Notes under the pieces: generated by a model
Told to the model about the DNA's origin: nothing
Database searches by the model: none
What the model saw: only the letters and a program-made list of their open reading frames with translations
Position numbers and translations under genes: made by a program
Assembly: GCA_043228905.1 (NCBI GenBank)
Contig: JBHGNT010000241.1
Span: 1-45,948, forward strand
Reading direction: 5' to 3'
Origin: Azolla caroliniana
Taxonomy: Eukaryota > Plantae > Polypodiophyta
DNA length: 45,948 nt
Part shown: positions 11,454 through 38,593 of the stretch, one piece after another
Position numbering within the stretch: position 1 is the stretch's first letter
How the letters are laid out: each line of letters opens with the position of its first letter

Positions 11454-13236
11454 TCGGCCACAAACCGATTCGGTAAGTCCACAATCACATGAAGACAACC
11501 CCAATGAGCAATCCCCCGTAGACCATCATTCAATGCTGCAGCCAACAGCGCCCACCACAACAAATGGGTCAGTCTGAGTCTATACGCCGCAAACAAACAA
11601 ACAAACAAAGGACAGGCGGGAAGCAGCAAAAAGAATGATTCTAAAATAATAAAGTTATTTCTAATGTGTAATGATGTTATTTACAGATTATACACAAATA
11701 AAATGTATTATAATAAATTACTGCATTTATTAACAGGTAATGTAGAACCACAAAAATTCTTTAATTGTTGATTTGAGATATCATTTGGTATCGACTGGGG
11801 CTACAGCTGTTATCATGCATTTATTAGGTTATATAATAGTCAATTTCTTCAGATCGGATGGTAGAAGTGCTATAACTGGCGGATTCAATAAATTTTACTA
11901 CATACTCGGAATAAGTAGTTTCACAAGTATTATTATTGTTTCACTATATGATAATTTGAAAGCTTTTATATATAAGTATTTTTCTTTGAAAAGTCTTACT
12001 AATTACATGCGAATATATGCACAAGTTTTTGTATTAGGTGTTATAACATGGTATTTAATAGCAGCAGCTTTGAATATCAATCAATAAATGATTTAATATC
12101 TTCCTGCTATAGATATATTGTTGATTATATCACCCCATCTCAGCAGGATGCTGTCAGCATACAACAACCCAACGTAACACATGAAAATAGTAGTGCTATT
12201 ATAGAAAAAGAAGAACAAGAAAAAGCTGCTAACAAGGTATGCAGCGAAGAAACGACAACTGCTTCTGATATACAGTCAAAAGCAGCTGTAAAAGAAGAAG
12301 AGGAAAACAGCGTGTCGTAGCTACTACTAAATCATCGGGTGATGATGCAGCAGAAACGAGCAGTACGGTATCTTCCGCATTAGAAGAAGAACAACGAAAG
12401 GCTGATCCGGGTAGTACTGCATGCAGTAGAATCAAACGATTCAACAACTAGTAGTAGTGTACCGATACATAAAGATAAGTATTTTTGGATTACGCTACTA
12501 ATACCTGTAGTAGCTGTTATAATAGCATATACATTTGGCAAACGAGGTGGTGGTGGTGATGATGATGGTCCATTACCTTCTATAAGTGATTTTAATCCAT
12601 TTTGAAATATGATGAATTGGTTTTGGTATAGACCTGGAAGACTTGATTTACCAAATGCTTGCTGCTTTGCTGCTTTGGAGGTTATAGATCCTGTAAATTC
12701 AACAGGTAGAATAATGGAAAGTATCCACCTTGCTATAGAGTATATGCGTCATAACCATGATGGCTTTTACATGGCTCTTGAATATCCCCAACATATACCA
12801 CTTATTTGAAAAGGATTCTTGTATTTAACTTGTTGCATAAGATTGGTACATGAGCGTTTTTTACGTGGCGATCGACTGGATGGTCGGCCTTCAAATGAAT
12901 AAATTAACACTATCGTAGATTCACTACTTAATACTAATGTTGAAAATAATAATAATAATAATAATAATTCTTATTTACCGTTATATTACTATACTAGTGC
13001 TAGTGACATAAATGCTAATTCATCATCTAATACAAATGTAATTGATGTGAATTTTTCGAACATCCAATTGGTTTTACTGTCCAGAGATTTCCAGATCTTG
13101 GTCTCGCAAGCAAGGTTGTTTACCTTTGATACTAATGTTAATATGGTGCGTGCACAGGAGTACTAGTATTAATGAAGATCTGTTCAGTGGATTGATATCA
13201 GGGTCTGTTGAAAATATCAGTATCAGTGATAGAACC

Positions 13237-13313
13237 GATGCCGAAATACAAACCGGTCTTGGTATTGATGCCGAAACACAAACCGGTCTTGGTATTGATG
13301 CCGAAACACAAAC
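13237..13313 (+). repeat. 30-bp tandem repeat, about 2.6 copies, encoding DAETQTGLGI
   Basis: Unit GATGCCGAAA(T/C)ACAAACCGGTCTTGGTATT. Confidence 0.9.
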
Positions 13314-13709
13314 TGATAATAATCATGCTGATCAACAAAAAAAAACTGTACAAACTGATGTTTCCCGTTTTCATTCTAGTAGTTCTTCTTCAAGAATATA
13401 TTTCTCTGCTAATGATGATGATGATGATGTTGATGACGATCTTTAATATTAACACAATCTTCTGCTGCTGGGTTAAAACAATACCACCACCTGCGTGTAT
13501 AAAAGAAAAATAAATAACAATAATAATAATAAAGTGTGTAGAGAAATTGGGTCTATGGATAGAGCTGAAACGCTCGCTGTGAACCAGACATCCATAAAAG
13601 GTAAACTTCTGTTTTGTTTTACCTCAAATTCAATTAAAAGGAACTATAACTAAAGGGAGTTTAGAGGCCATATGAATCTCTTCTAGGATCAAAAATGACT
13701 TGATTGAAT

Positions 13710-13798
13710 TTAAGAGAATTTTCCATGTTACACCAAGTTACTTACGGAAGTATGCATACACTCCAGGAACACTTCAGGGTAAACACCCATCCGAATGG
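13710..13798 (-). CDS. nad4: NADH dehydrogenase subunit 4, exon 3 (89 nt)
   Basis: IWMGVYPEVFLECMHTSVSNLVQHGKFS* after editing; follows the intron end GACCCTAC. Confidence 0.93.
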
Positions 13799-14099
13799 GT
13801 AGGGTCGAAGGTTCAGCATTCAGGCCGTAACATTAGTTAAGCAGAACAAAAAAAAGATTTTTCACCCTAAATGCGTAGTAAAGTGCTCTCCGAACCGAGC
13901 TGGATAGTCTCCTCTCACTCGGCTCACTAACCTGAACTTTCATTGTTACGGCTTCAGATATTTAAACCGCACGCAATTGTTGGATGGTTCCCAGCTTTTC
14001 GTATGGGGGTTCTCATACGGCATAAGTGACAGAGTGGTATTTGTTTCCTTCTTGCCGTAATCACCATTTGTTTGACGAAATCGTTCGTGTGCGATCCCT

Positions 14100-15655
14100 T
14101 TATTATTATTGCGGTCGAGTGCCGGTATGTGGTACGCCTGCGGCTCTCGGCTCCGTCACAAGCGGCGCATACGTTCCGTAAGGCGGCGCGCGCTGTTCGG
14201 CCACGATCTGATCTCCATTGTAGTTTTCTTCATGGATCTGGCACTTGCTAGGCCTGTATTGGATCTGGTACTCAATTCCTTGACAGTGGCTTTACTACGT
14301 TCGGTCGTAGTGTGTTCACAATTCGTACAAACGGAACGTCTGGCATCGATTGCTTCTACAAGATCACCGGGCCTCTGCCGCCCAATCTCGTATGCGATGG
14401 TCGGTGGCCGATAGGCTTTGCTCCCTCTAGGGGCCGGTCCTCGCTCGCCAGCGGTTGCGGACGCTTCGCTAATCAATCTACAGTTCGATTTAGCAGCGAG
14501 AACGAAAGCCAGTAAGTACCGTAGTGTAAGAGAAAGATACCCTGATGATATTTTGTCGCCTGTTTCCAGCAGCAAGGTAGTGGCGATTGGGATACGCTAC
14601 GAAGAATAGACGCGACTCTTGATTCTCTGAAAAGGTGGATTTTGGAAATACTTGAGGAAGTTGTTTGGATCCTTATCACAAAACCCTCATTCTTTACCTC
14701 TATTATTTTTTCACGCACGAATTCCGTTCCCTTTCATGACCCTTTGTTCTACCACATTCCTCCCATTCCATGAACTTTTGTTTCTTTCACTCTCGGAGTA
14801 GGCGCGAAGCCAGCCAGCCTTCCCGGCTTTACAGGTTTCGACTAGGGAAGTCTTTATATCAATCAAATTTTGGTTGGGTATCTCTCGCACACTTCCTTCT
14901 ATGAACCTCGGGCTGTAAGTCACTTTCGAGAGTCTGTCCAAGAAGGCCTGGCTTTCCGTGATCGATACTATCGTGCGTGTTTACCGATACCTTCTCTCAT
15001 ACACTAAACGGTACCACGGAGATCTCTACGTACTTGTCTTAGACAAGTATGCTGAGACCTTCCCAGCCCCCGTGGAAGCGGCAAAGGCTGCAGGGCGAAG
15101 CAGATTGCTCTAAGAAAAGAAGGGTTCGCACCTGCGGCCTGTACAAGTCTGTCTTAGAATTATGGTATGCTAAAGGGCATAGCAGCAAGCGCCTACAGCT
15201 AGATTTGGGAATGCAAGGGGGGCGGGGCGGGGCGGGGCGGGGCGGGGCGGGGCGGGCGAGAGATCCCGCTATGCTTTCTTTGCGGCATGATACTACGGAA
15301 TCAAGGCCGCAGGTCCAGCAGTATTTTCACGAAGATGCCGTCTATAGTGGTTCCCTCGAGCCCAGCCCTTGGTCGTCATTGACCTGAGATTAGGTGCTAG
15401 TTTTTCATAGGCAGCAATCCGTCATATATCTATGTCCCATCGAAATGGTCTTTCGACCTTCGCTCGATCTCGACAGCTTAGATCCCATAAGACACGTAGT
15501 TGTTGTTCCATTGTCGTCAAAGCCTCGAGCTTTAATCCATCCGGACCTGGAGTCAATTTTCTCGTGTCATTCAAGTGTACAACGTCCATCAATGATAGTT
15601 CATTAATGTCCATTGATTTAGACTCCTTCTCCGCCACCTTATACAAATAAGATCG
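14100..15655 (-). pseudogene. degenerate RT/maturase ORF in nad4i1399g2
   Basis: RT0-like LTPGPDGLKLE near 15520-15555; X-domain-like VKNEGF and TLRYLLAFVLAAKSN.RLISEA at 14450-14700. Broken by frameshifts and a (GGGCG)n array. Confidence 0.65.
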
Positions 15656-16119
15656 ATAGGGGTCGGGCCTTTCATTTGAGGGCCCCTGTTCCCTAGCCCT
15701 CACAACGAACCACCGTACGGAAGCCTTTCGACTCGTACGGCTCGCCCTCTCAGATCTAGACCCTGGCATTACCAGTTAGGTCTTTACCCGTTGTTCTGCC
15801 ACGGCGAGGCCCAGTCTAGCTTGCGTGTGGAGTGGCGTACAGATTTGTTAAGGAAATGTCCGTTGCCTTAGTAGAGAACAGTACAATCCTGGACTGGCCC
15901 TCTTTGTATTAACCGCTAAGGTCTATGTCGTCACTACGAGCGAGGCCTCTGAACTCTTCAAGGACGCCGTCAAAGAAGGGGATGATTGGCCCCGACTTTT
16001 GAAACTACTAGGTTTTCCTTTTTAGTGAGAGCTATGCGGCCCTTGCTTTTCATGCGGAAAAAAGAAGAAACCTTGCTTGGCTTGCCAAAGTAAGCTCAGC
16101 AGTCAGCCTACGGGCGCAC
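15656..16119 (-). other. nested compact group II intron (inner intron of a twintron, or fossil), 464 nt
   Basis: 5' GTGCGCCCG at 16119; DIII-like hairpin GACCT-AACTGG-TAATG-CCAGGGTC; domain V GAGCCGTACGAGTCGAAAGGCTTCCGTACGGTGGTTC (15707-15743); DVI ending CCCGACCCCTAT at 15656. Confidence 0.72.
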
Positions 16120-16652
16120 GGTAAGGTGTTTGGCTTTTTTTTGCCGGATCTAGAGAGATACTACGAGTCCCCCGCCCCAGATTCCCGAATCCGCGGTTAT
16201 CTAGTTCGCCGGTACTACCAAAAACTCTGATGCTTACGTTACCGAACTAGTAGTGTCAGTCCGAACGGCCGGCGGAAAACCCAGTTGTGCTTTTAGCATC
16301 GGCTCCGTATCGAAGTTGGAAACTCCCCGTGCTCTGCCATAAATGCTTGGAGTCCATATTTATTATGGTGGAGATAATGCTGTGATAGAATTGATTGCTC
16401 AATAACCTAACCGAGCGCGCGTTCGAGTCATTGGCTCGTCCAACCTCGCATTCATGAGTAACCCATTCAACTGTCTTTCGGAGACACGGTCGGAAAGTGA
16501 GGGCCGAAAGTGGCTGGCCTCGCTCTTTCCTTTCGCAACAGGCTATGTTCCCTATTTATTAAGGTAAGTTGCCTCCGTCTCATCGCGAGCACCTACAATG
16601 TTGTGATTACATTGTTTAGTAATACATTTACTTGGTGGTTTAACGGTCGCCT

Positions 16653-17075
16653 CTCCAGGAATGGAAGGTAAAAATGTTAGAACTTCTCTTCTATTCAAAT
16701 CGGAGAATTTATGGAGGAATTTGGGTTTCGAATTCCCAAAAACCACACGATTATATAGCCAAAGAGGATAGGCTGCGCCTAAAATCATCCCAAGTGCCGC
16801 CGATGTGGCCACTAAGCTATTTTTTTAAGAAGCTCCCACTAGAATAGGAAATTCCCCAATGGAGCTGCTAGTGCCGGGTAAACTCATATTAGCTGGAGTA
16901 GAAAGTAATGGAATGGTGAAGAAATTTAGCATGGTGCTTGCTAGACCTCCGTAATACCTAACAGGTCGGGTCTTATATCAGTCGTATGGAGCACCAACGC
17001 ATGAGAAAAGGGCTAAAAGAACCAGTCCATAACTTGACGTGGGTAAAATGCTACCTTCAATTCCCTATATGTTTG
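16653..17075 (-). CDS. nad4: NADH dehydrogenase subunit 4, exon 2 (423 nt)
   Basis: NIQGIEGSILLMLSHGL...NMSLPGTSSFIGEF...LGMILGAAYSLWLYNRVVFGN after editing. Length matches the i976-i1399 spacing. Confidence 0.93.
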
Positions 17076-18748: not shown

Positions 18749-19715
18749 GACTAGACATACCAATAGTTACAAAATTCATATAGGCTACTAAAGGGTAGGC
18801 AATAATCTTTTTCAGATCAATTTATCTTATAGTAGTCAGGAGAGTGTATATAATAGCAATCACGCTTAGAGTATAAATAAAAAGAGTAAAATAAAGTATC
18901 ACTCCAGGAAACATGAGTACAGAAAATCTTAAAAAACCATAGGTTCCCAGTTTTAAAAAAATTCCTGCCAAGATTACAAATCCAGCTGTAAGTACCTCTA
19001 CATGAGCTTCGGGTAACCAAATATGAACTGGTACCATAGGCACTTTTACAGAGAAAGAAGCGAAAAAGGCGAGCCATAGCAAGATTTAGCGCCATTCACT
19101 AGACTCTGTGGTTAATAATATATGCAAATCGATAGTTCCCGTCTGAAAGAAAATCAATAAGATAGCTAAGAGCATGAAGACAGATCCAAGCAAGGTATAT
19201 AAGAGAAACTAATGTGCCGCTCATATTTTTCTTTATCTAGAACCCCATACCCCTATAATAATAAACATAAAGATTAACACGCTTTCGAAAAAAACATAAA
19301 AAAGTAAAATATCCAGCATGCGAGACACAGCAATCGTAAAAGATTCACCAATTGAAAATGCTATTATATACTCTTTCTTAAAACTTTCGATACTGGACCA
19401 ACCTACTAAAATGCAAATGGAAACTGAAGACATGGTCGAGACTGCTAAAGATAGGAGAGTACCGTCTATACCTATGATGAAATTGATGTTTGAATGGGGA
19501 AGCCATCAAATAGTTTCCGCAAATTAAAATTTGGCTGTAGAATTATCGGATCATGTCCGAAAAACTGAAAAATACGAGAAAATCATCAAAAAAGCGCACA
19601 GACCAGTGATTCATATCCGTCATATTCCGAAATCGAGAAAAACCGAAGAAATAATGCTTCCCAACGGAGAACATAGGGTGAGACCACTGAGATGGGATTC
19701 CGCTAATAACATCAT
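18749..19715 (-). CDS. nad4: NADH dehydrogenase subunit 4, exon 1 (no intron at i461)
   Basis: ATG at 19715; ..[57 protein letters not shown]. Many stops that editing can remove. Confidence 0.93.
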
Positions 19716-21003: not shown

Positions 21004-21074
21004 AGGCTAGGGACGGAGTCGAACCGTCATTCCAGGATTTGCAGTCCAATACATTGCCATTATGTTACCCAGCC
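21004..21074 (-). tRNA. trnC: tRNA-Cys(GCA), copy 2
   Basis: Reverse complement identical to 3704-3774. Confidence 0.93.
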
Positions 21075-22204: not shown

Positions 22205-22362
22205 GTTAACCTAAGCCGCACCATTACTGCTGGGGCTTGGCTCCCGAACCGTGCATGAGCTATAGGCCTCACACGGCTCTTCCCGTCATGCTGGCATCTC
22301 CTCCCCGTATTTAGCTATGACGGAAGGCGTTTCGAGTTATGGTATGATTTCACTCCAAATTG

Positions 22363-22393
<31 letters not shown>

Positions 22394-23000
22394 TTAGGAC
22401 GGTGATTTAACGCGAGTTTGAATACCTTACGTATGATTCGCTGTCATCTACGATCCAATTTGAAGAAGTTAATGGGTCCCCGTGTCAGCTCTGGAGCTTG
22501 GTGAAGAATCCTATTTCCAAGAGCATACAGCCTGGCGGGCCTTCCGTTTCCGGAGCTTCATGGGCGTTGCCCCGTTCCCCAACCAGATGCTTGGATGTGA
22601 GCTATACTCCGTAAGGGATGCCGCGAGCGTAGATGGTCTGTCTCAGACAGAAGAGCCATCGATAACTTACTTTTCTCGGGCGTCAAGGGATGCTCAATGA
22701 CAATCCCCAAGTTGTCACTGCCTTGCTCCCTCCCGCTATTACGATAACGAGTCCCGTGGTCAGCACCGTCGATTGGGCCACGAAGCTTACACTCATTCAT
22801 TGTTCGTCCTGCGCCCCGGGCCTTTTGCTTTTGCAGTTTCGAAGGTAGCCGCCCTTCCATCAAGGCCTGGGAGTCAACTGAACATCTCAGCTACTGGCGG
22901 AAAAGATCGGCGATCTCTTTTTGTCCGCTTTTGGTTGAAGTTCACGTTATTAATAGCGTGAGCCGTTTTGCAGATATTGCTTAGGGCTAACAGATCACAC
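22205..23000 (-). other. rps1: group II intron rps1i25g2
   Basis: 5' GTGTGATCTGTTAGCCC; domain V GAGCCGTGTGAGGCCTATAGCTCATGCACGGTTC; 3' TTAGGTTAAC. Inserted after CDS nucleotide 25. Confidence 0.9.
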
Positions 23001-23025
23001 TGGGGAATAATTAACCAAAGCTCGT
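23001..23025 (-). CDS. rps1: ribosomal protein S1, exon 1 (25 nt, ACG>AUG start)
   Basis: ACG AGC TTT GGT TAA TTA TTC CCC A = MSFGQLFP after editing. Confidence 0.85.
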
Positions 23026-24591
23026 TCTGCTTTCTCTTATTCTTGTTCTGTTTCTCGTTTCGAGGTCTGTTTCTAATATCTATGGGAGTTTGTGAGAGGT
23101 CCCTCAGGTGAAAGCAGCTTACATGGGAATGAAAGGGATCCTCTTAGCGGCATCTCTAGTAAGAGATGAAGCTAGGAGGTGGGCTGTCTAGTCCCTTAGC
23201 CTTCACCGAACCCATTATGCTCAGATGCATACAAAGGCTTATGGTTCCTGGCGAACTTAACACCCGAGGCCAAACCTCGCCTCGAATGTAGGAGCTGCTA
23301 TAAGTCACTTTATATAGAGACCTTCTTTCAGGGATCAAAAGGCCCCCACGACTCAAGCAGTTGGATGGTTGGATGGGGTGTTCTAAGACCTTTTTCATAG
23401 CGTCATACTACCCATACACGATTCCAAATCGGAATCTTTCCCGTCGCTACCGTCTTCGGTGGGTTAGGGGAGGTGGAGATCGGGCTCGGAAAAGATCCAG
23501 AACAGGGTCTCCTCTAATCAATCCCGAACAAGTTCTCGAAGCTGTAATCTTACGTAATGTCGTGTGATCAATTCAAGAACCGCTTCTGTTCTGCGCCGAT
23601 AATCTCAGGATCGCCGCACATTGTTTCTAGTTCGGAGAGAGACACGATCGCCTCTCCTTTCTCCAAAATCGATAGATACTGCCCCCGTAACCTCAGAGGC
23701 GAATTTTGCCATATACCCAACCCTAACCATGGGAAGGTTTCAGAACTGAGCAAACCAAGGTTCCCATCCCAAGGCGGCAGAGGTAAAACACCTGCTTGCT
23801 TGCTTGCTTGCTTGCTGGGGATGTTAGAACCAACCAGTGCCGATGAACCGGTTCATCATGAAGGCCGGCCCGGCCCGGCCCGGCCCGGCCGTTTTCACGC
23901 ATGAGGAGAAAGGTAGCCTTCTACCGCCCGCCGCCGAGAGAGCACCTCACGCGAAACCCGCTCCGCAACAACAAAGTCGAGCTAATTCGCCGAAGGCCTC
24001 TCGGAACTCAGAGAATCTGCAGAACAAGGGAACGGTCTGAGAAGTCACCTTAGCACTGCTGACGAGAGAGAATGATACCGAGGAAAGGAAAGGAAAGGAA
24101 AGGAAAGGAAAGGAAACATTTCTCCCTTTCCAGGAGAATCGGGGGGCGGGCAGATTCCAAGCTAACGACCGAGATGAAGGAAAATAAAAATGGGAAAGGG
24201 TAGTAAGTGGGAAACAGGAGGAATGGATGATGATGGAACGGTGATGTATCAGATAAGGTGGACCAGCGCTGATAGACAACGGAGAGTAGAACCTGAACCC
24301 GACTCTATCGTTGGGTATTCGACCCCTGAACCTTTGGCCGGGTACTCATCTAATGCATTCCGAAAAATACAGTAGGAATTGGACCTACCGAGCACCGTAT
24401 AGAATCGTAAAAGGAAGACAACTAGGTGATTCGTCGAGCCCCAACCGGCCGGATCCCCTGCCCTTGATGTTATAAGCCCACCTTCAAAGCAAAGCTGGCC
24501 CGCTGAACCCCACAACGTCAGGCTTTTCAACCAGTCAAGTTTCCATTGACCTGCATTCTGCTTGGGGAAGGGCAAGGCCCATACCTTGTTG

Positions 24592-32473: not shown

Positions 32474-32890
32474 GATATGATGATTGGTTTAGGCACCAAT
32501 TTTCGGGCCAATTCCCTTTCAATGCTACCCAAAAATGAGATTCTTGCCGAATCTGAGTTTGCTACTCCAATCACAATCAAACCAGTACCTATTACGTTTA
32601 GCATCTTAGGGGCTTTTACGGCGTATAATGTAAATCTTTTCGCGAACGAATTCCTTTTCGCTTTCGGAACCAGTACTTTCGGTAATGGACTTTATTGCTT
32701 TCTGAATAAGCGCCGGTTCTTTGACAAAGTTTTCAATGACTTTCTAGTGAGATCGTTTTTGCATTTCGGATACGAAGTCTCATTTAAAGCCTTAGACAAG
32801 GGTGCTATTGAGATCTCAGGTCCTTACGGGATTTCGTACACATTCCGGAAATTGGCCAAGCAAATAAGTTAACTTTAAAGTGGATTTGTT
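32474..32890 (+). CDS. nad5: nad5 exon 4 (417 nt; no intron at i1477)
   Basis: [44 protein letters not shown] after editing, contiguous. Confidence 0.94.
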
Positions 32891-37784: not shown

Positions 37785-38130
37785 GCGTGAGGAAACAAAC
37801 TGAGCAATGGCCCTAGCTAGCCGATAGGGCTAAAGCGACGACAAGGAAGTAGAACTCCAACCACGGCGTAGGTGTTCTTTCCGCCGGCCGGCCGCCTGTG
37901 GACATCACAGATGGATCGCATCTACGTCGTCGTCCGGGAGGCATGAGCTGCCAATTTGCGGCAGTTGCTGGCTGCATGGGCATCGTCACGATCAAAAGAG
38001 GGCAGGGGAGCTCGTATTCCGGAACCCTCACCTGATGGGATGCGGGGAGCCGTATGACGGGAAACTGTCACGAGCGGTTCTGAATTGGCGGTCAGGCAGG
38101 GAACTCCTAACCTGATTGGCCGACCAAAAC

Positions 38131-38316
38131 CGAAATAAGACTCCGGAAAAGTCGTCGCCGTTGTTAAGAAATAGTTTATTTACATGAGTAAGAAACTGAC
38201 GTATTTCCATCGGTCGCTTCCGTTTCGTATATTAGTTATTTTGTATGCTTCGTATAGTTTTCTGTGAATTAGCATTAAAAGGTTCTTTAATAGGCATAAA
38301 CAAGTCGTGTTGGCAG
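38131..38316 (+). pseudogene. rps14: duplicate rps14 exon 2 with the 3' half of intron i114 (37229-38130) but no exon 1
   Basis: Identical to 3312-3497; upstream identity stops at 37229. Confidence 0.88.
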
Positions 38317-38522
38317 TACGCTGGTCGGCTTCACAAGCAAGCTGCGGGTCTTTTTCAATCACTAATTCTTATTTTGCCCAAAATCGTTGTCGTTGGTTCA
38401 CATTTTATGGCATCGCAGAAATTGATTGTAAGGCTTTAGATTATTTCAAAGGGTGGCCTAAGGTCACCCCCCTTAAATGAGAGTCCCGCCTCTCTTCATT
38501 TAAGCGGGAAAAACGTTCTGCT

Positions 38523-38593
38523 GGCTGGGTAACATAATGGCAATGTATTGGACTGCAAATCCTGGAATGACGGTTCGACTCCGTCCCTAGCCT
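38523..38593 (+). tRNA. trnC: tRNA-Cys(GCA), copy 3
   Basis: Identical to 3704-3774. Confidence 0.93.

Follow-up and report, generated by a model that had tools for sequence, protein, structure and literature searches.

A decayed copy of the mitochondrial cox2i691g2 intron nested in nad4i1399g2 of a fern: most likely a zombie twintron, probably shared with seed plants

Zombie twintrons, in which a group II intron that still splices carries a second, degenerate group II intron in the same orientation, have been described from lycophyte and hornwort mitochondria, among them cox1i1149g2ii652g2, sdh3i349g2ii42g2, and atp1i1050g2ii1536g2 (PMC7049729). The donor of the inner copy is a paralogue elsewhere in plant mitochondrial DNA, and for cox1i1149g2ii652g2 a shift in the pairing of domains V and VI (DV-DVI) has been described (PMC7049729). 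In the functional twintron atp9i87g2ii1114g2 of Lycopodiaceae, the inner intron is inserted in domain IV (DIV) of its host, at or near maturase-like sequence, and it splices first and restores an intact maturase (PMC7049729). In leptosporangiate ferns, a former twintron arrangement has been proposed for the mitochondrial mat-Lepto region; that case involves rps14 and a maturase gene, its nesting is inferred as a past state, and the main text of the report makes no mention of nad4 (PMC12548569). Here, we describe an intron nested in nad4i1399g2 of a fern, which shares the architecture of the published zombie twintrons and differs from them in host, donor, and phylogenetic reach.

The window, by which we mean the whole 45,948-nt stretch of Azolla caroliniana DNA that was analysed, is mitochondrial DNA of the fern (leptosporangiate) type: its nad4 gene has stop codons at the genomic level, RNA shows U-to-C differences there, rps1 has an intron at the rps1i25g2 position, and nad5 is without i1477. 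The last nad4 intron, nad4i1399g2, occupies 2854 nt of the minus strand (13799..16652), between a heavily edited 423-nt exon (16653..17075), in which RNA runs show C-to-U and U-to-C differences, and the last nad4 exon (13710..13798), edited at 13798 and 13730 in reads. The length of the 423-nt exon equals 1399 minus 976, which fits an exon running from i976 to i1399. The 5' core of the outer intron (16120..16652; DI to DIII and the first bases of DIV, with domain limits set by eye) can be aligned to a seed-plant orthologue, L011, and its DV and DVI (13799..13927) score 43 bits against Rfam RF00029. Three raw RNA reads from run X24 join 16653 exactly to 13798, with the first base of the downstream exon C-to-U edited, and another RNA run gave a spliced contig for the same intron (X18 record 7). 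The outer intron is thus spliced.

Nested in nad4i1399g2, in the same orientation, is a second group II intron of 464 nt (15656..16119, minus strand). It starts 533 nt into its host, and we propose the label nad4i1399g2ii533g2. The first-pass annotation had placed this element from motifs, and these proved correctly positioned and distinct from the DV and DVI of the outer intron: the 5' motif GTGCGCCCG at 16119, DV at 15743-15707, the 3' end CGACCCCTAT at 15656, and a DIV of about 27 nt. From the 5' side, the element comprises an end with GUGCG (16084..16119), a best-kept domain I block (15858..15904), DII and DIII hairpins (15771..15836; limits set by eye, the DIII motif being common to the seed-plant fossil copy), DV (15707..15743), and a DVI region with a lengthened linker and a candidate branch A at 15663 (15656..15706). 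Its GUGYG 5' and AY 3' ends are intact in all eight fern loci that we could compare. DV has the AGC triad, a GAAA loop of the GNRA type, and a bulge (CC, at 15720-15719), despite a 3-nt GGT duplication (15714-15709). The insertion point lies just after the outer DIII, as judged by eye, and hence in domain IV of the host, a domain that tolerates insertions in group II introns.

Covariance and folding, two of the checks proposed in the first-pass annotation, would not establish the element by themselves: the inner DV/DVI scored 23.9 bits against RF00029 (E 0.094; gathering threshold 40), and the whole element folded no better than shuffled sequences (z -0.08). The inner intron is established by its homology to cox2i691g2, a BLAST comparison with plant mitochondrial introns having likewise been proposed there for finding the donor. 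In the seed-plant mitochondrial DNA that provided the nad4 orthologue (L011), a cox2 intron starts after the codons for NHAFM, which we take to be the position called cox2i691g2 in the literature. Complete copies of 1702-1712 nt were found on plant mitochondrial contigs of four assemblies titled Frankia; compared with L011, these contigs are 97% identical in the cox2 exon and 95% in the intron. The mitochondrial contigs in these four assemblies (L013-L016) carry cox2 and rrnL and are likely host contamination.

The fern element matches cox2i691g2 in collinear blocks: the 5' end (74% over 42 columns), domain I (83-85% over 48 columns, E 2e-9 to 1e-8), DV (78% over 46 nt), and the last 12 bases. 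When the entire 2854-nt outer intron was compared with the 10-kb donor locus, all three BLAST matches fell on the inner element. The signal extends beyond DV, as the 5' 345 nt of the element align to cox2i691g2 with a z of 8.7, above all 500 shuffles, and it is specific, as the DV/DVI tail scores 206 against cox2i691 and 53-122 when set against the 11 remaining DV tails of the window. Shuffle z values against the donor were 5.5 for the window, 7.4 for a more distant fern locus (L003), and 14.7 for the seed-plant copy; with seven other intron regions, none of these copies exceeded 2.1. Run by BLAST on seven whole assemblies, the seed-plant segment matched cox2i691 alone, in four of the seven. 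Since the similarity coincides with both intron ends, the inner element is, on these sequence comparisons, a paralogue of cox2i691g2, which has been listed as solitary, with no paralogue (PMC10012718, supplement 2). The two share the 5' end, the domain I blocks, a DV with a CC bulge, and the 3' end; the inner copy, at 464 nt versus 1702 nt, is missing about 250 nt of DI and almost the whole of DIV, and the donor scores 47.2 bits in Rfam versus 23.9 for the copy.

No donor was found inside the window by blastn and shuffle tests, the latter leading us to reject its rps1 intron, and short motifs had no match in the supplements of PMC7049729 and PMC10012718. A short repeat of about 35 nt in L011 (8260-8295 and 14578-14610) is common to the nad4 fossil and domain IV of the same plant's cox2i691; it was not seen in the L013 donor and could reflect conversion or the movement of a small repeat.

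The place of insertion resembles the donor's own exon context. The eight bases upstream (16120..16127, minus strand) are like the end of the cox2 exon, and in silico removal of the element leaves a junction resembling the cox2 exon junction. Under a one-gap rule picked after the site had been seen, the junction ranks first of 2303 positions in L003, agreeing with the cox2 homing site at 11 of 12 bases, and second of 2376 in the window, with 10 of 12. With no gap, agreement was 7 of 11 in L003 (14 of 2303 positions being as good) and 6 of 11 in the window (72 of 2376). If one gap is allowed, at most one other position in the host intron would thus resemble the cox2 homing site more closely. Reverse splicing into an ectopic site would account for the ends at the donor splice sites, the sense orientation, and the site mimicry. 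A donor lariat would have reverse-spliced into a site resembling its own cox2 exon junction, and the product would have been reverse-transcribed and then fixed, both steps being established group II behaviour. Domain IV of nad4i1399g2 would have tolerated the load, and the copy would then have decayed separately in the fern and seed-plant lineages.

The same observations bear on whether retrotransposition is needed at all. Cox2 intron DNA might have been brought in by recombination, fern mitogenomes being recombinogenic (PMC10027690), or the resemblance might be due to chance, in keeping with the sub-threshold Rfam score and the lack of an overall folding signal. However, the similarity is bounded by the donor splice sites and lies in sense orientation between two stretches of host intron, and the insertion point resembles the homing site, so that we consider this reading largely refuted and very improbable.

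A metagenome scan with the nad4i1399 3' junction recovered 12 loci, nine of which span the insertion site (L002, L007, and L009 fall short). Seven of the nine match the window at 97-99% identity and are unlikely to be independent, L003 matches it at 81%, and L011 belongs to the seed-plant type. All nine are occupied. In each of the eight fern loci, the element has its two ends and the GGT duplication, and to that extent the fern twintron proposed in the first-pass annotation stands; it is not fern-specific, however, as a copy lies at the same site in L011, where the same flanks enclose about 590 nt and the 3' junction is in register. Alignment of this stretch with the fern element gave z values of 6.3-7.6, higher than in any of 100 shuffles, and shows the two to be homologous. 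The seed-plant copy is the more decayed, without the 5' motif and DV, but it retains more of DI, much of which is lost from the fern copies that keep the ends, DV, and DVI. Among four other sets of RNA contigs, a more distant fern (X17) spans the whole stretch and has the element, and two others reach the 5' junction; a further seed-plant-like RNA contig has 667 nt at the site. Contigs of X17 and X18 also match the 5' junction over 36 nt with six mismatches, which we treated as chance.

No empty site was found in the nine spanning loci (eight fern, one seed-plant) or in the further RNA contig sets. The comparison across ferns had been expected to expose one; its failure in eight fern loci does not refute the twintron, because the same site is occupied in the seed-plant orthologue. 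Three pattern scans of viral contigs and the first genome-contig scan returned no matches, and further seed-plant nad4i1399 sequences were absent from the nodule-derived assemblies searched, four genomes and then seven. Occupancy of all nine spanning loci with no empty site suggests that the insertion predates the fern/seed-plant split. We regard an ancient insertion shared with seed plants as probable, the pre-insertion state being inferred and one seed-plant copy having been aligned.

Two separate insertions at this site by the same donor, in ferns and in seed plants respectively, or a later conversion of the seed-plant copy by cox2i691, would also account for occupancy in both lineages. As the best homing-site mimic, the site could have been struck twice, and the seed-plant copy is nearer to the angiosperm-type cox2i691 (z 14.7) than it is to the fern copy (z 6.3-7.6), with one 27-nt block 96% identical to the angiosperm-type intron. 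Informative site patterns (4 versus 7 versus 5 of 78 columns) could not join the fern copies to the seed-plant copy to the exclusion of the donor. Against this, DIII and DV stretches common to the fern and seed-plant copies differ in the donor, both copies are deeply decayed, and no empty site was seen in either lineage, so that one event is simpler; we judge repeated arrival or conversion unlikely. Our favoured reading, which we hold with reasonable confidence, is that a decayed cox2i691g2 copy sits in domain IV of nad4i1399g2, likely having arrived by a single reverse-splicing event before ferns and seed plants parted, and is likely no longer spliced.

The inner copy is degenerate and looks dead. 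Relative to the donor, about 250 nt of domain I are gone, the hairpin where the donor has its likely EBS1 stem-loop (15963..15971; aligned, with the assignment by eye) has shrunk to a 3-nt loop, the GGT duplication lies beside the catalytic triad, and the DV-DVI linker is lengthened. The first-pass annotation had read both the CC bulge and the GGT duplication as signs of a possible fossil, and only the latter, absent from the donor, survives as a lesion; the bulge was inherited, the DV of the intact cox2i691g2 having the same non-AC bulge. A complete domain I with EBS1/IBS1 pairing is lacking in the inner element. A 6-bp EBS1/IBS1 search found none in the inner copy and none in the donor, and so does not separate live from dead introns. 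In predicted folds, the window and L003 tails form no branch helix and leave the 3' end outside, whereas the donor folds normally, and a DVI with a bulged branch A is accordingly not predicted for the inner element. In the distant fern X17, positions 15663-15669 around the candidate branch A are rewritten. Between the window and L003, the element has a substitution rate of 0.121, identical to that of DIV filler (0.121, p 1.0) and above that of the outer core (0.043, p 1e-5); inner DIII-DVI are somewhat slower than filler (0.071, p 0.09).

The search for inner-junction reads listed none in X24, the only raw-read run, at a depth of 2-6; about 12% of the run was read, and joints with fewer than three reads go unlisted. 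Two deep RNA contig sets (X15/X16) held no joint for either intron, and we discount the missing inner joint there as strong evidence, since the outer joint is missing as well. Low depth, the 3-read threshold, and the failure of the deep sets to show the outer joint make the RNA evidence against inner splicing weak.

A fern twintron that still functions, its inner intron splicing first at a low rate with help from editing and host factors, would fit the intact termini in eight of eight fern loci, the slightly greater conservation of DIII-DVI, and the DV pairing, which is kept with one double change relative to the donor. Working plant mitochondrial introns, moreover, are often degenerate. This reading has to contend with the large DI deletion, the duplication beside the triad, the predicted misfolding of DVI, the rewritten branch region in X17, the neutral overall rate, the lack of a listed junction, and the lack of any intact outer ORF to restore, and we consider it quite improbable. 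Its boldest form, in which an unnoticed twintron roughly 400 million years old and common to ferns and seed plants, flowering plants included, still splices its inner intron at a low rate in ferns and would be the oldest living plant mitochondrial twintron, seems to us just as doubtful. The inner copy is therefore likely no longer spliced, the outer intron being excised with it inside, as the first-pass annotation had suspected of a fossil, and the outer-junction reads, lesions, and neutral rate support this. Outer splicing would not depend on prior inner splicing, as the seed-plant copy is without the 5' motif and DV. An intron within an intron in the same orientation, with a spliced outer and a degenerate inner partner, is most likely a zombie twintron.

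Immediately downstream of the inner element, an open stretch (15425..15655, minus strand) contains TPGPDG, about 100 nt from the element, and a few other motifs that by eye resemble a decayed maturase. The first-pass annotation had set the element at the 5' end of a maturase remnant; the motif is in place, but no profile confirms a maturase, as Pfam, NCBIfam, and two protein searches gave no maturase match. The protein-search matches were read-through ORFs from other copies of nad4i1399g2, several of which run out of the inner DV/DVI, or unrelated repeats. Unlike atp9i87g2ii1114g2, the nad4 intron has no intact ORF and inner splicing was not seen; the insertion may mark the event that disabled a putative maturase of the host intron.

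Elements of this kind are known; what appears to be new is the host, the donor, and the extension into seed plants. The five published cases come from lycophytes and hornworts (PMC7049729), and this one from ferns and a seed plant. Identity to the donor is about 60% of aligned letters, against 98% in the hornwort case (PMC7049729), which argues that the nad4 copy is much older. Our literature search found no report of a nad4i1399 twintron or of a cox2i691 paralogue, though figures and subscription papers could hold one. In the literature searched, it would stand as the first case of one group II intron inside another to be followed across ferns and seed plants, and it lies in a much-studied intron. 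It gives cox2i691g2 a first paralogue and a direction of movement, from cox2 into nad4, offers a deep shared marker for vascular-plant phylogeny, and would show one insertion decaying by two routes. Ferns without cox2i691g2 may retain the nad4 relic; Haplopteris is reported to lack the cox2 intron (PMC10027690).

Several other features of the window were recorded, the names of introns other than those of nad4 being by-eye assignments. Upstream of nad4 lie rps1 and its intron (22205-23640, minus strand), at the position of rps1i25g2, given as a fern-only intron in PMC10012718. By eye, nad4 is continuous over the i461 position (18749-19715, minus strand), and nad4i461g2 appears to have been lost; a table in PMC10027690 gives it as present in Haplopteris and two eusporangiate ferns. 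In nad5, the short exon that follows i1455 is joined directly to the next exon (32478-32600, plus strand), so that nad5i1477g2 is absent, as it is from Haplopteris (PMC10027690). Three identical copies of trnC-GCA occur (3226-3774 and 38045-38593, plus strand; 21004-21074, minus strand), and upstream of two of them stands the same group II DV/DVI, which no obvious exon follows; in other ferns, mat-Lepto and an rps14 repeat lie near trnC-GCA (PMC12548569). Just downstream of nad4, on the opposite strand, an open frame contains a short tandem peptide repeat (13051-13446, plus strand). Within the outer domain IV, reads and contigs break at a GC-rich 5-nt microsatellite (15208-15263). In the poly(A) run X24, reads in the opposite orientation match 15456-15582 and 15851-15966 with a few changes and continue into unrelated sequence; these are likely nuclear copies of mitochondrial DNA.
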